From Candidatus Kapaibacterium sp. (lineage in GTDB: Bacteria > Bacteroidota > Ignavibacteria > Kapaibacteriales > UBA2268): a DNA stretch of 64,000 nt. Below, in pieces: positions 37,454 to 42,038 of the stretch. Location: positions 1,536,001 to 1,600,000 of the forward strand of contig OY761611.1 of assembly GCA_963664875.1 (NCBI GenBank), given 5' to 3'. Each line of letters opens with the position of its first letter. Position 1 is the stretch's first letter. The notes below the pieces were generated by a model. That model saw only the letters and a program-made list of their open reading frames with translations, did not search any database and was not told where the DNA came from. The position numbers and the translations under genes are program-made.

Positions 37454-38653
37454 TTAGTCTAATTCTTTTACAACTTTAGTGATTCTTTCGATTGCCCAGT
37501 CGATTTCTTCTTTAGTGATTACCAAAGGAGGAGCAAAACGGATAATATTTTCGTGTGTTTCTTTGCATAGGATACCTTCCTGCATCAATTTTTCGCAGTA
37601 AGGACGTGCTTTTCTATCTAAAACAAAACCAATCCAAAGACCACGACCACGAACTTCAGTAATGTGAGCGCTATCGATAGCACGAAGTTGCTCAACGAAG
37701 TAATTACCTAATTCAAAAGATTTTTCAACTAATTTTTCTTCTTCGATTACTTCCAAAGCTCTGATAGCAACAGCAGCACCAAGAGGGTTACCACCGAAAG
37801 TAGAACCATGTTCGCCCGGTTTGATAACACCCATGATTGGTTCGTCAGCTAAAATACCTGATACAGGATAGAAGCCACCGGAAAGAGCTTTACCAACGAT
37901 TACGATGTCAGGGCGTACTTCTTCGTAGTAGTGAGCAAAAAGTTTACCACTTCTGCCAAGACCAGCCTGAATTTCGTCGCAGATAAACAGAATGTTATTT
38001 GCTTTACAAATTTCTGCGATACCTTTCAAGTAACCGTCAGGAGGAATAACCACACCACCTTCACCTTGGATTGGCTCAACCAAAACAGCGCAAGTGTTAG
38101 GAGTGATTTTAGATTTAAGATCTTCTAAATTGCCGTATTCGTGCATTGGGAATGCTTCTTTGCAGTAAGGACCGAAGCCTTTGAAAGAAGAAGGATCATC
38201 AGAGAAACCAACGATAGTTGAAGTACGACCGTGGAAGTTACCTGTAGCAACAACGATTTCAGCAGTATCTTCTTTCAAGCCTTTTACATCATAAGCCCAA
38301 CGACGAGCAACTTTGATTGCAGATTCTACTGCTTCAGCGCCTGAGTTCATAGGCAAGAAGTTACCGTAACCTGTCATTTCATTGATTTTTTTGTAAAGCA
38401 TAGGCAATTTGTCATTACGGAACGCACGGCTTGTCAAAGTTACTTTTTCAACCTGTTCCAAAAATGCTTTTTTGATTTCAGGGTGGCAGTGACCTTGGTT
38501 TACAGCAGAGTAAGCAGCCAAGCAATCCAAATATTTTTTGCCTTCTACATCTTCTACCCAGATGCCTTGAGCTTTAGTAACTACTACGTCTAATGGGTGA
38601 TAATTATGGGCACCCAACTTATTTTCTATATCGATAAACTCTTGAGTTTTCAT
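37454..38653 (-). CDS. rocD: Ornithine--oxo-acid aminotransferase
   Basis: GAHNYHPL, YSAVNQGHCHP, TLTSRAF, EPIQGEGG, DEIQAGLGRSG, GKALSGG, PGEHGSTFGGNPL. Confidence 0.96.
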   Translation of the reverse strand: MKTQEFIDIENKLGAHNYHPLDVVVTKAQGIWVEDVEGKKYLDCLAAYSAVNQGHCHPEIKKAFLEQVEKVTLTSRAFRNDKLPMLYKKINEMTGYGNFLPMNSGAEAVESAIKVARRWAYDVKGLKEDTAEIVVATGNFHGRTSTIVGFSDDPSSFKGFGPYCKEAFPMHEYGNLEDLKSKITPNTCAVLVEPIQGEGGVVIPPDGYLKGIAEICKANNILFICDEIQAGLGRSGKLFAHYYEEVRPDIVIVGKALSGGFYPVSGILADEPIMGVIKPGEHGSTFGGNPLGAAVAIRALEVIEEEKLVEKSFELGNYFVEQLRAIDSAHITEVRGRGLWIGFVLDRKARPYCEKLMQEGILCKETHENIIRFAPPLVITKEEIDWAIERITKVVKELD

Positions 38654-38692
38654 GGAATATATCCCTTACAATAGAATATTTGTTTAAAAATA

Positions 38693-39085
38693 GAATTATT
38701 TATCTTAGCCGCAAGCAAAAGCATGCGCTTGCACTTGTGCTAATATCCGATAGACTTGTATTCTTGACTATCCTACTTCTCTTCGGCGTTGCTCAGTGTA
38801 AACTTTAGCTCAGCCAAAACTACTTTGTATGCCAGCCTTTATTCAGATAAGCATATATCCTGAAAAGGATTTGTACATTCTGCAAAAATAGAGAACGAGG
38901 TATGGAGAAAAGCGTTCTTTTTTCTTTTTCTTTGGTTTCCGTTTCTTTTGCTTTTTTATCGCAAAAAAAAGAAAAAGAAATGGAAAAAGCTTTGCCAATC
39001 TCTTATCTAAATCACGAACAAATGCGAATTATTTATCTTAGCAGCAAGCAAAAGCATGCGGCTGGAATTGTGCTAATATCCGATA
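38693..39085. repeat. Composite intergenic element: two 60-bp hairpin-forming direct repeats (38693-38752, 39026-39085) flanking a long T/A-rich inverted repeat
   Basis: Copies match at 55/60 positions by manual alignment. Internal TTAGC/GCTAA and GCAAGC/GCTTGC stems. TTTCCGTTTCTTTT...AAAAGAAATGGAAA hairpin near 38936-38987. Confidence 0.85.
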
Positions 39086-39117
39086 AATACAAGTTTCTAT
39101 AAAAAATATCGGACAAA

Positions 39118-40032
39118 TTACATATTATCGAAAAGCATTGTGAGCAATGCCATTCTAATCAAAAGACCATTTTTGCTCTGTCTGAAATATGCTGCACGAG
39201 GATCGCTATCCACTTCCGGGCTAATCTCCACAGAACGTGGTAATGGGTGCATAATTATAGAATCATATTTCATTCTTTGCAAAACAGTCTTATCTATATT
39301 AAATACGGAAAGATCCATATCCTGTTTTGCTAATCTGTCTCTGTTGATTCTTGTTTGGTAAACAACGTCAACTTTTTCGATTATCTCTTCAGTGCTGTTA
39401 GCCAATTTGTACCAAACACCTCTTTCTTCGAGATGCTCAAGTATATCTTGTTTAATCTGCAACTCTTCAGGAGCAATAAAATAGAGTTTTACTCTGTCAA
39501 ATTTGCTAAGCAAATAAGCTAACGAGCGAACAGTACGACCATTATCCAAAGCACCTATGAAAGCAACGGAAAGACCATTTAGAGTTTTACATTCGTTATA
39601 GATTGTAAACAACTCCAAAAGAGCCTGTGTCGGGTGTTGACCGCCAGAACCGTCGCCGGCATTGATGATAGGAACATGTGAAACGGCTGCAGCACGCTTT
39701 GCACCGCCGTCTTCATGGTGGCGAAGAACTATACCATCGCAGTAATTGCTTATGATTTGGATAGTATCTTCCAAGCTTTCCCCTGCAATTTCAGAAGAAA
39801 AGCTCATAGCCTGCTCAGTAGAAAGCACTTTACCACCTAATCTGTACATAGCAGCTTCGAATGAGAAGCGAGTACGTGTAGAAGGTTTGTAAAAAAGAGT
39901 TGCAAGGATTCTATCTGAATAGTCCATAGTGCCGCCTCTTTTTACGATGCGTTCCATTTCATGAGCACGGTCGAAAAGTTCCATAATTCTTGGAACGGAA
40001 AATTGCTGAGATTCTACTATGTGTTTAAACAT
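39118..40032 (-). CDS. Aspartate carbamoyltransferase-like protein (plant-type PyrB homolog) with altered active site
   Basis: PSTRTRFSFE, VLRH, INAGDG, QHPTQALL, GRTVRSLAYLL, VVYQTRI, MHPLPR, DPRAAYFRQ. Key residues differ from canonical ATCase (see findings). Confidence 0.85.
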   Translation of the reverse strand: MFKHIVESQQFSVPRIMELFDRAHEMERIVKRGGTMDYSDRILATLFYKPSTRTRFSFEAAMYRLGGKVLSTEQAMSFSSEIAGESLEDTIQIISNYCDGIVLRHHEDGGAKRAAAVSHVPIINAGDGSGGQHPTQALLELFTIYNECKTLNGLSVAFIGALDNGRTVRSLAYLLSKFDRVKLYFIAPEELQIKQDILEHLEERGVWYKLANSTEEIIEKVDVVYQTRINRDRLAKQDMDLSVFNIDKTVLQRMKYDSIIMHPLPRSVEISPEVDSDPRAAYFRQSKNGLLIRMALLTMLFDNM

Positions 40033-40171
40033 GAGCAACCGCCTTTATATTTAAAATTATTAAGCTCTGTTTTTTTAAATTAAACGAATTAGGTAGCAAT
40101 AAAATATATATATTTTAAAATTGCTGCAAAAAAAACCGAATAATTTTACAAAAACAAGCACATTTAAAACA

Positions 40172-41122
40172 CTACGCAGTGATGTGCGTACCGGCTTTAC
40201 CTTCGAGAGCATCCATCAAATATTCATAAGAAGTAATGATAGCTTTTTTGCCACCATTTTTTACAAATTTGATAGCAGACTCAATTTTAGGAAGCATAGA
40301 GCCCGGAGCGAAATGCCCTTCTTTCACATATTGTTCCATTTCAGCAACAGTTGCATGAGAGATGCTTCGCATAGTTGGCTTTTTGAAATCCAAATAAGCA
40401 GCATCAGCATCAGTACTGATAATAAATACATCGACGTCTAAATCAAAAGCAAGTAAAGCAGAAGATCTGTCTTTATCAATCACAGCTTCTGAGCCTTCGA
40501 TTTCGCCGTTTTCTTTTTTGACTACAGGGATACCGCCACCACCAAGAGCCACAGTCAAAATATCCATTTCGATATTTTTCTTAATTACTTCGAGCTGAAG
40601 TATTTCTTTTGGCTGAGGTGATGGTACTACTCTTCTATAACCGCGTGAAGCATCTTCGACAACATTCCAGCCTAAAGTTTTGCTTTTTTCTTCAGCTACT
40701 TCTTTAGTGTAAAATGGGCCAATTGGCTTATTTGGATTTTGGAATGCAGGATCCGCAGGATCTACCGCACACATTGTCGGGATAACTGTTACTAAATTTT
40801 TAAGTCCTAATTCGCGTAACTCAGCTTCCATAGCTCTCTGCATGATATACCCAATTTCACTTTGAGTAGTAGCTACGCACATATCCAAAGTATGAGTATA
40901 TACTTCGCCGGCAGCTCTTTCGCTTCTAAGCAGAGCGGCACCTGCCTGAGGGCCGTTACCGTGAGTTACAACAACTTGCCAGCCCATTTCCACCATCTTG
41001 CAGATAGTTTTGGCTGTGGCTCTTGCATTTCCGAGTTGTTCCTCGATCGTGCCGCGTTCACCGGCACGAATCAAGGAATTACCACCTACAGCTATTAACG
41101 CTTTTTTTGACACTAAAGTCAC
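40172..41122 (-). CDS. arcC: Carbamate kinase
   Basis: AVGGNSL, THGNGPQ, KPIGPFY, RRVVPSP, GGGGIPV, EAVIDKD, GSMLPKIE. GTG start adjacent to the argF stop. Confidence 0.96.
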   Translation of the reverse strand: MTLVSKKALIAVGGNSLIRAGERGTIEEQLGNARATAKTICKMVEMGWQVVVTHGNGPQAGAALLRSERAAGEVYTHTLDMCVATTQSEIGYIMQRAMEAELRELGLKNLVTVIPTMCAVDPADPAFQNPNKPIGPFYTKEVAEEKSKTLGWNVVEDASRGYRRVVPSPQPKEILQLEVIKKNIEMDILTVALGGGGIPVVKKENGEIEGSEAVIDKDRSSALLAFDLDVDVFIISTDADAAYLDFKKPTMRSISHATVAEMEQYVKEGHFAPGSMLPKIESAIKFVKNGGKKAIITSYEYLMDALEGKAGTHITA

Positions 41123-41123
41123 C

Positions 41124-42038
41124 TTATTTCATTAATTGGTACATTACTGCTTTTTGAGCGTGCAATCTGTTTTCAGCTTCTTGGAATACATGAGAAGCGT
41201 CAGTGTCGATTACATCAGAGCATACTTCTTCGCCGCGGTGAGCAGGCAAGCAATGCAAGAACATAGCGTCTTTATTTGTGTGGCTAAACAATTCAGCATT
41301 AACCTGATAAGGCATAAAGATTTTTTTACGTTCTGCCGCTTCTGCTTCCTGACCCATAGATGCCCAAACGTCAGTATAAACGACGTCAGCACCTGTTACA
41401 GCTTTAACAACATCGTGTTCTACTTCGATTTTTGCGCCAGTTTCTTTTGCTGCTTCTTGAGCTTCCTGGAAAGCAATCAAGTTTGGTTCGAAACCTACCG
41501 GGCAAGCGATAGTTACATCAACACCTAAGCGAGCACCTGCGAACATCAAAGAGTGAGCAACGTTGTTACCGTCACCAACATAAGTCAATTTCAAACCATC
41601 GAAAGAACCTTTTATTTCTTTGATAGTCATGAAATCTGCCATAGCCTGGCATGGGTGAGTGTAGTCAGTAAGACCATTGATGATTGGAATTGTAGTGCAA
41701 GCAGCCATTCTGTCAACAATAGAGTGAGCAAAAGTACGAATCATGATACCGTCAGCCATACGACCAAGTACACGGCCGATATCTTCTACAGATTCACGTT
41801 TGCCAAGGCTGATTTCTTGTGGAGAAAGATAAAGAGAGTAACCGCCTAACTGCTGGATACCGATATCGAAAGAAGCTCTTGTACGAAGAGAAGGTTTTTC
41901 GAATATCAAAGCAAGAGTTTTGCCTTTCAATGCTTCAGCATATTTAGCTTTGTTGTTTTTCATATCAATCGCCAAATCGATAGTATCGATTACTTCCTGG
42001 CGAGTGAAATCGGTCACTTTCAAAAAGTCTTTAGTCAT
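41124..42038 (-). CDS. argF: Ornithine carbamoyltransferase
   Basis: FEKPSLRTR, HPCQAMAD, GDGNNVAHS, DVWASMGQE (ornithine SMG motif), HCLPAHRGEE. Confidence 0.94.
   Translation of the reverse strand: MTKDFLKVTDFTRQEVIDTIDLAIDMKNNKAKYAEALKGKTLALIFEKPSLRTRASFDIGIQQLGGYSLYLSPQEISLGKRESVEDIGRVLGRMADGIMIRTFAHSIVDRMAACTTIPIINGLTDYTHPCQAMADFMTIKEIKGSFDGLKLTYVGDGNNVAHSLMFAGARLGVDVTIACPVGFEPNLIAFQEAQEAAKETGAKIEVEHDVVKAVTGADVVYTDVWASMGQEAEAAERKKIFMPYQVNAELFSHTNKDAMFLHCLPAHRGEEVCSDVIDTDASHVFQEAENRLHAQKAVMYQLMK

Follow-up and report, generated by a model that had tools for sequence, protein, structure and literature searches.

PyrB', an aspartate carbamoyltransferase paralog with a probable new role in the arginine-breakdown gene set of Kapabacteria and other phyla

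In a stretch of 64,000 nucleotides from Candidatus Kapaibacterium sp. (contig OY761611.1 of assembly GCA_963664875.1; here called the window), a gene of the minus strand lies between the genes for carbamate kinase (arcC) and ornithine aminotransferase (rocD) and encodes a protein of the aspartate carbamoyltransferase (ATCase) branch, which we call PyrB'. Judged by its conserved residues and its rate of substitution, PyrB' is a functional paralog under strong purifying selection, derived from the HPLP (plant/archaeal/E. coli-type) branch of ATCases. Judged by its gene neighbourhood, it is passed on as a constant member of an arginine-breakdown module that consists of an ArcE-like protein, ornithine carbamoyltransferase (OTC), carbamate kinase and usually ornithine aminotransferase, and within this gene set it probably has a new job. 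The whole genome (G000) is a single contig (C1) and 100% complete; the window corresponds to C1:1536001-1600000.

Gene content of the locus

The genes of the cluster and the spacer that interrupts it are listed in Table 1. The frame of PyrB' contains no stops and extends beyond the ATG to a TTG six bases further upstream (39118..40038, minus strand). A sequence-only reading of the window had singled out this gene, and the strings quoted there (GRTVRSLAYLL, DVVYQTRI, MHPLPR and DPRAAYFRQ) are all found in the translation. Its description of the surroundings was accurate as well: PyrB' is placed between arcC and rocD, with no pyrC, pyrI or carAB near it at the locus, and carB and pyrI were not found genome-wide. 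The translation of the neighbouring ArgF shows the OTC motifs TDVWASMG and HCLP.

Table 1. Coordinates of the cluster genes and of the spacer, given as positions of the window
Feature	Position	Strand	Remarks
argF/arcB, ornithine carbamoyltransferase	41124..42038	-	first gene of cluster; NF001986 424.5 bits, TIGR00658 410.2 bits
arcC, carbamate kinase	40172..41122	-	directly upstream of PyrB'; TIGR00746 365.3 bits (cut-off 358.25)
PyrB', ATCase-branch paralog	39118..40032	-	304 aa, ATG at 40032; OTCace_N + OTCace, TIGR00670
PyrB'-rocD spacer	38654..39117		464 bp; contains dispersed repeat and direct duplication
rocD, ornithine--oxo-acid aminotransferase	37454..38653	-	downstream of PyrB'; TIGR01885 541.6 bits (cut-off 378.4)

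PyrB' matches the Pfam domains PF02729 (OTCace_N, 1.2e-41) and PF00185 (OTCace, 5.3e-29) and scores above the curated ATCase cut-offs of two hidden Markov models (HMMs), with 302.1 versus 236.95 bits for TIGR00670 and 269.1 versus 263 bits for NF002032, so that annotation pipelines call it an ATCase. Among solved structures Arabidopsis PYRB matches best (6ypo, E 2.3e-95), followed by archaeal ATCases, human CAD and the E. coli ATCase, which bears out the plant-type likeness noted earlier.

The spacer between PyrB' and rocD measures only about 40-100 bp in near relatives. In the window it holds a dispersed repeat of ~113 bp (38904-39015) flanked by a direct duplication of 60 bp (38693-38752 and 39026-39085). 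At least nine further copies of the repeat with 83-92% identity were obtained by blastn against the own genome, and one copy, at C1:2068721-2068833, is separated by about 0.7 kb from the arcE-like gene described below. DNA nearly identical to the PyrB' region occurs in several public sequencing runs, and short contigs from one wastewater metatranscriptome match 39141-39340 and 39801-40030 with 2 differences each, a match that is in itself not proof of transcription.

Active-site residues and spread of the PyrB' family

Residues are numbered after E. coli K-12 PyrB, to which PyrB' was aligned, and were counted in 81 PyrB' orthologs and in 106 representatives (at 50% identity) of the other ATCase clusters. 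PyrB' of the window carries E50K, K84A, D141E, D162A, Q231N and E233D, which appear against 6ypo as FYKPSTRTR for FYEPSTRTR, IAGE for AKGE, ALLE for ALLD, IGAL for VGDL and RINRDR for RIQRER. S52, T53, R54, T55, S80, R105, H134, Q137, R167, R229, R234 and the HPLP loop are kept. The alignment thus reproduces both halves of the sequence-only reading, the retained carbamoyl-phosphate (CP) ligands with R167/R229 and the six substitutions. In ATCase, R167 and R229 are the arginines that bind the carboxylates of aspartate, Q231 anchors its beta-carboxylate, K84 is contributed by the adjacent chain, and E50 is the latch that closes the domains. The substituted residues had been called normally invariant, and in the other ATCases they are present in 89-105 of the 106 representatives (E50 in 89, K84 in 101, D141 in 105, D162 in 105, Q231 in 101 and E233 in 97).

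Among the orthologs, S52, T53, R54, T55, S80, R105, H134, R167, P266 and P268 are found in 81/81 sequences and Q137 (80/81), R229 (78/81) and L267 (78/81) are nearly invariant. Position 50 is Q in 27, R in 17, K in 15 and E in 10 orthologs, with other residues in the rest, so that the FxExSTR motif fails. Position 84 is E in 50, K in 9, A in 8 and D in 6, again with others besides. Position 162 is E in 46, A in 29, S in 6 and D in none, and the GDL motif is gone. The RxQxER motif fails at position 231, where R (31), D (21), Q (7), N (6), E (4) and others are found. FxExSTR and the RxQxER of the 240s loop are the ATCase signatures of Shi et al. (PMC4581275).

The loss of E50, K84, D162 and Q231 is therefore a trait of the whole family and not private decay. 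The other two changes are no family traits: D141E is confined to near relatives (5/81 orthologs), and 60/81 orthologs retain E233. The same counts speak against the steric argument of the earlier reading, that shortening Q to N and E to D would fit a larger acceptor such as glutamate, since position 231 is mostly R or D, with N in only six orthologs, and E233 is usually kept. The observation made from the sequence is real, whereas the mechanism inferred from it is wrong in detail.

Variability was expressed as the percentile of the column entropy. Positions 50, 84, 162 and 231 rank at the 92nd, 83rd, 71st and 93rd percentile in PyrB' and at the 22nd, 15th, 5th and 13th in the other ATCases. 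The high variability at 50, 84 and 231 indicates that the constraint on these positions was lifted, not redirected. Charge pairing between positions 84 and 231 was considered and rejected, as E84/R231 occurs 25 times, yet E84/D231 10 times and K84/D231 6 times, so that no consistent pairing results. Newly fixed in the family are D164 (79/81), E82 (75/81) and an extra Gly before H134 (95%), in addition to R36, D38, Y39, Y64, R181 and V271 (E. coli-equivalent positions). Measured against its nearest canonical relatives, the family is 3-5 residues short in the 240s loop. In comparison with Arabidopsis PYRB (6YPO), PyrB' shares the fold, the length, the HPLP loop, all CP ligands, R167 and R229 and also keeps the F-S-S start of the CP-loop that is used for inhibition by uridine monophosphate (UMP) in plants; it differs by the four lost residues, by the gain of E82, D164 and the additional Gly, and by the shorter 240s loop.

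A word-indexed search gave thousands of homologs. Identity is 73-100% for the best 120 listed, and those of them that bear a name are deposited as 'aspartate carbamoyltransferase' of Kapabacteria, Ignavibacteria, Bacteroidota and metagenome-assembled genomes (MAGs) of the FCB group. Scanning one genome per species yielded 80 PyrB' loci, in which the protein is 69-95% identical to that of the window in Kapabacteria, Ignavibacteria and Bacteroidota and 63-66% identical in Acidobacteriota, Gemmatimonadota and Myxococcota. If PyrB' is indeed no ATCase, the database name would be a systematic mis-annotation across several phyla of soil, sediment and wastewater. In an exhaustive library clustered at 50% identity, essentially a single full-length sequence (63%) represents the family; the full-length relatives that come next, at no more than 56%, are canonical. 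In the tree, 22 sampled PyrB' sequences and the library representative form one clade (SH-aLRT 99) nested among plant-type-like canonical sequences, with one subclade of Acidobacteriota, Myxococcota and Gemmatimonadota and a second one of Kapabacteria, Ignavibacteria and Bacteroidota. Among longer proteins (533-2000 aa) no fusion containing PyrB' was found; the best matches were plant or eukaryotic ATCase or CAD with at most 53% identity.

Against three near relatives, the ratio of non-synonymous to synonymous substitution rates (dN/dS) of PyrB' is 0.033-0.041. The neighbouring genes gave 0.067-0.072 for ArgF, 0.044-0.057 for ArcC and 0.037-0.084 for RocD.

Two observations concern the edges of the family. 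The long-branch representatives P0126 and P0135 stand beside the PyrB' clade and have deviant ATCase motifs (TRLHKEL and no FYE motif in P0126); they may be further diverged ATCase paralogs. In addition, ten loci (L013-L015, L017, L019, L020, L025, L028, L033 and L038) come from MAGs titled Hyphomicrobiales, Chromatiales or Ectothiorhodospiraceae and carry PyrB' of the Kapabacteria/Ignavibacteria subclade. Where the contig allows, these MAGs show the whole cluster. The bins have probably been given the wrong label and would not represent proteobacterial carriers.

Co-inheritance with arginine breakdown and the supply of carbamoyl phosphate

In 72 of the 80 loci the gene immediately upstream of PyrB' is ArcC. 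ArgF and ArcC both stand upstream in 65, and most of the other loci are cut by contig ends. RocD follows directly downstream in 60 loci, and a gene for an ArcE-like protein of ~445 aa is found within 59. All four partners occur together in 42 loci; 74 loci have one or more of them and the other 6 have none. The order argF-arcC-pyrB'-rocD is conserved across at least four phyla, and the synteny seen in the window thus extends to the homologs.

The ~445-aa protein has no NCBIfam match at 1e-10, weak P-loop matches to cobW, CbiA and LpxK, the Atlas label 'putative cyclic 2,3-diphosphoglycerate synthetase / GTPase' and a single, weak match in the PDB, to cyclic 2,3-diphosphoglycerate synthetase. 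Michimori et al. (PMC11032458) describe that some homologs of the arginine synthetase ArcE are annotated as putative GTPase, that similarity to cyclic 2,3-diphosphoglycerate synthase is low and that the structure resembles LpxK; some homologs lie near arcB/arcC, and Acidobacteria and Bacteroidota are among the taxa with ArcE homologs. As the weak matches and the label fit these published homologs, we infer that the partner is a putative arginine synthetase homolog, here called ArcE-like. In the own genome the arcE-like gene is located away from the cluster (C1:2069504-2070820) and its product is 77% identical to an Ignavibacteria copy.

Co-occurrence was followed in 61 relatives, drawn from the own family and from ten further families of its order. 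PyrB' is present in 31 of them, namely the own genome and 30 of the 36 others of the family, and in none of the 24 from other families. The ArcE-like protein and carbamate kinase were each found in 30 of the 31 carriers and in 0 of the 30 non-carriers. The two misses are fragmented MAGs (one 94% complete in 780 contigs, the other 82% complete), and within the family six genomes are without PyrB', ArcE-like protein and carbamate kinase together. Since kin are not independent, these counts are a pattern and not a statistic. Six genomes have a stand-alone PyrB'; all six encode the ArcE-like protein and five of them carbamate kinase, the sixth being a 2-Mb MAG. Taken together, PyrB' would belong, as a fixed component under strong selection, to the arginine-breakdown route via arginine synthetase that was discovered recently.

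The neighbours of the six stand-alone genes (Cache-domain protein, valyl-tRNA synthetase, 23S rRNA intervening sequence protein, response regulators, DsrC, C25 peptidase) are mutually unrelated and give no functional hint. Beyond the ArcE-like gene no further general neighbour appeared in the loci, where other neighbour clusters reach just 4-9 loci. These comprise DNA polymerase I, a methionine gamma-lyase-like and a GltA/PyrK-like protein, a class-V aminotransferase, POR subunits and open reading frames (ORFs) with no Pfam match, the latter partly spurious antisense ORFs of the crude ORF picking. Small genes for the 23S rRNA intervening sequence protein, a four-helix bundle, lie at L012:2408-2797, L014:4829-5242 and L081:8527-8901, directly upstream of a stand-alone PyrB' or within the cluster; one belongs to a neighbour cluster common to 6 loci.

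PyrB' is not the sole pyrB of its genome. A canonical copy, for which the sequence-only reading had left room, is located at C1:3470013-3470900 (TIGR00670 296.6 bits) and shows the motifs FFENSTRT, KKGES, HPTQAILD, GDILHSRV, LRLQRER and HPGP. A canonical pyrB also accompanies PyrB' in 5/5 other carriers from three phyla. Among the 61 relatives, 30 of the 31 carriers have two matches to the ATCase model, the exception being an 81%-complete MAG with PyrB' in pieces, and relatives that lack PyrB' have one match each, apart from two incomplete genomes with none. By these counts PyrB' is never the pyrimidine-pathway ATCase of its genome, one fragmented MAG excepted. The HPGP-type pyrB copies of the hosts are 47-70% identical to the own canonical copy and 28-37% identical to PyrB'. 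This rules out a recent duplication of the host pyrB, and PyrB' will have come from another class of ATCase instead of being duplicated in place.

The nearest canonical relatives of PyrB' are a group from soil metagenomes, some of which are named from MAGs of Actinobacteria and Chloroflexi. An arc context common to these ATCases was rejected, as ArcC, RocD and ArcE occur in 0/80 metagenome loci; the one locus that was examined holds pyrB, a phosphoribosyltransferase and a fused carA-carB. PyrB' therefore differs from these plant-type bacterial look-alikes in that it is placed in an arginine-catabolic cluster, and its closest canonical relatives lie elsewhere, one beside carAB. Several of the soil-metagenome ATCases (P0122, P0124, P0125, P0127 and P0129; L112-L191) have the CP-loop EFSSA[AI]KGE and might be UMP-inhibited. 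According to Bellin et al., this CP-loop is found exclusively in plants and underlies their inhibition by UMP (PMC7878868).

The own genome contains pyrC (407.5 bits), pyrE (119.6 bits), dihydroorotate dehydrogenase (pyrD, 112.1 bits) and orotidine monophosphate decarboxylase (pyrF, 104.4 bits) next to the canonical pyrB. carB, encoding the large subunit of carbamoyl-phosphate synthetase (CPS), was not found in it (best match 63.9 bits versus a cut-off of 1027), and neither was argG. A tblastn search of the genome with E. coli proteins gave no ArgB, ArgC, ArgE, ProA, ProB or PyrI and no convincing ArgH, for which there were two matches of 22% identity (E 1e-7 and 2e-6). With the pyrB-pyrF set and no carB, CP for pyrimidines must come via the arc genes, by phosphorolysis of citrulline or by reversed carbamate kinase, and the lack of the listed biosynthetic genes indicates that the organism should be an arginine, and probably also proline, auxotroph. 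Of the 31 module carriers, 19 yielded no carB, and three of these 19 are single-contig genomes; among the 30 relatives that lack the module carB was found in 29, the exception being 60% complete. However, carB is present in 5/5 PyrB' carriers of other phyla, so that PyrB' is not tied to the loss of CPS. In Thermococcus, which lacks CPS, it was shown genetically that the ArcE pathway supplies CP for pyrimidines (PMC13260591). Many Kapabacteria without CPS must likewise draw their pyrimidine CP from arginine, a dependence so far shown only for Thermococcus and one that bears on the metabolism of uncultured bacteria.

Two further genes of arginine metabolism were noted in the own genome. A protein of 699 aa (L105:9865-11964, minus strand, ~C1:2071864-2073963) combines a peptidyl-arginine deiminase domain of the Porphyromonas type with a C-terminal sorting domain of type-IX secretion and lies two genes from the arcE-like gene, with an ORF of 111 aa in between; enzymes of this type turn arginine residues into citrulline. 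The other is a protein of the arginine deiminase (ADI) family at C1:2584292-2585524 (L106:6275-7537, plus strand), with a Pfam ADI match of 1.4e-63 and 252.6 bits for TIGR01078, below the cut-off of 489.1. The genome may thus hold both ADI-like and ArcE-like routes, a combination called rare in PMC11032458.

Possible functions of PyrB'

Because PyrB' fails both ATCase signatures, we infer that it is no longer an ATCase. The reading that we favour, though with clear reserve, is that it would be a CP-using transcarbamylase whose second substrate is not aspartate. That it may still be a transcarbamylase is suggested by the invariant CP-activating residues, by selection as strong as on the neighbouring true enzymes and by the dispensability of the K84 equivalent in OTCases. 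OTCases have no counterpart of K84 (PMC4581275, Table 1) and work nonetheless, so that its loss need not abolish transcarbamylase chemistry. The loss of K84 together with the fixed E82 and D164 points to a second substrate that is probably less acidic than aspartate.

Such an enzyme would share the module's CP pool with OTC, and two directions can be envisaged. PyrB' could phosphorolyse a second ureido compound and thereby feed carbamate kinase, or it could drain CP onto an acceptor and so let the thermodynamically tight route of ArcE, OTC and carbamate kinase run. By our own arithmetic from values given in PMC11032458, a yield of two ATP per arginine would leave almost no driving force, which makes it plausible that the module contains a further reaction that produces or drains CP. 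If PyrB' is a transcarbamylase of this kind, the reaction would be new; it could act as a sink for CP or yield ATP by phosphorolysis of a further ureido compound.

Two known carbamoyltransferases were considered for PyrB' and excluded. It is no OTC, as DxxxSMG and HCLP are absent (RINRDR and HPLP are found instead) and the OTC HMMs score far below their cut-offs. Ureidoglycine transcarbamylase (UGTCase) is ruled out by the HPLP loop, with P266 in 81/81 orthologs, and by the loss of K84; in loci with annotated flanks no purine-catabolic genes were found beside PyrB'. UGTCase of Rubrobacter is nevertheless the closest precedent for a possible function of PyrB'. It is an ATCase-branch enzyme with a changed second substrate that acts catabolically with carbamate kinase and was annotated as pseudo-ATCase (PMC4581275). 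It differs from PyrB' by H(T/S)LP in place of HPLP, by the retained K84 equivalent K106* and by S258 and K261 in the 240s loop (PMC4581275).

The gene set itself has a precedent in the ArcE pathway of Thermococcus kodakarensis, which uses arcE, arcB (OTC) and arcC (carbamate kinase) with ornithine aminotransferase downstream (PMC11032458), and the bacterial PyrB' clusters carry the same genes. In difference to these clusters, 'aspartate carbamoyltransferase' occurs 0 times in the main text of PMC11032458, and in that of PMC13260591 ATCase appears only as ordinary pyrB/pyrI and not as a part of the module. No paper describing an ATCase paralog in arcE/arcC clusters was found, although the supplementary gene-neighbourhood figures of PMC11032458, which were outside that search, may show it.

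Several points weigh against a transcarbamylase with a new acceptor. The changed pocket positions are variable and not re-fixed, as would be expected of a second-substrate site that was lost rather than retuned. K or R stands at position 50 in 32/81 orthologs, and the loss of E50 removes the latch that closes the domains. The residues that hold UMP in the plant enzyme are all kept, except for two Ala of the CP-loop, so that the conservation of R167 and R229 could also reflect the binding of a ligand without catalysis. On paper, moreover, the pathway of ArcE, OTC and carbamate kinase needs no further carbamoyltransferase, and arcE is found in many taxa (PMC11032458) beyond those in which PyrB' turned up.

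These points lead to a second explanation, which we consider less likely but a serious competitor. PyrB' could be a non-catalytic partner, a pseudo-transcarbamylase whose old active site only binds CP, a nucleotide like UMP, or both, and which regulates or scaffolds the module; for example, it might decide whether CP derived from arginine goes to carbamate kinase for ATP or is spared for the housekeeping ATCase. In the Arabidopsis enzyme UMP is contacted by R136, T137, R187 and H215 (phosphate), R248 (ribose), R310 (uracil O4), the PLP loop and the CP-loop residues F161 and S162 (PMC7878868). Matched by motif order, these contacts would correspond to R54, T55, R105, H134, R167, R229, P266-L267-P268, F78 and S79, all of which are conserved in 78-81 of the 81 PyrB' orthologs. 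The equivalent of K84, the position freed in PyrB', points outward in the UMP-bound state (PMC7878868), and free variation at positions 50, 84 and 231 fits a binding protein at least as well as an enzyme. A branch point for CP to be guarded does exist, as seen in the own genome, with pyrB, pyrC, pyrD, pyrE and pyrF but no detected carB, and in the unequal presence of carB in carriers and non-carriers of the module. The pseudo-dihydroorotase PyrC' of the Pseudomonas ATCase offers a precedent, as this paralog from pyrimidine synthesis is inactive and yet needed as an obligatory partner (PMC7053772).

Other features are difficult to reconcile with a non-catalytic partner. Invariance extends to residues that have a part in catalysis as well, namely Q137, H134, T55 and the HPLP loop with its cis-proline. 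Pseudoenzymes usually evolve faster, whereas the dN/dS of PyrB' is the lowest or near-lowest in the cluster. Of the two Ala in contact with UMP, one has become E (75/81) and the other I/V (80/81) in PyrB', and these exchanges should disturb the binding of UMP, and none of the longer proteins searched is a fused form that would point to a partner. PyrC' of Pseudomonas differs from PyrB' in that it has another fold and has lost its catalytic metal ligands, whereas PyrB' keeps the whole catalytic set for CP. The most specific form of this explanation, rather unlikely and slightly behind the general one, is that PyrB' would be the first pseudo-transcarbamylase, a formerly UMP-inhibited ATCase turned into a sensor of CP and pyrimidine nucleotides that gates CP between carbamate kinase ATP and pyrimidines. 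If so, it would represent a new kind of CP/nucleotide sensor, and the decision on CP would be vital in the many Kapabacteria without CPS.

That PyrB' is a retained ATCase, anabolic or catabolic, with unusual binding of aspartate, so that it links arginine-derived CP to pyrimidines or carbamoyl-aspartate to ATP, appears improbable. The scores above the curated TIGR00670 and NF002032 cut-offs and the conserved R167, R229 and HPLP would agree with it, as would the pyrimidine CP that the ArcE pathway supplies in Thermococcus without CPS (PMC13260591), and a catabolic ATCase has been proposed as a possibility (PMC4581275, section 9). However, FxExSTR and RxQxER both fail, E predominates at position 84 and D is absent from position 162, and a canonical pyrB is present as well, including in genomes with CPS. 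Single substitutions at K84, D162 and Q231 already cripple the E. coli enzyme.

Finally, a decaying duplicate or an assembly artefact, as the simultaneous change of several near-invariant ATCase residues might suggest, is refuted by the open frame with no stops, by the close identity of the best 120 homologs, by the 81 orthologs that carry the same pattern across phyla, by the low dN/dS, by the conserved synteny and by the near-identical DNA in several public runs.

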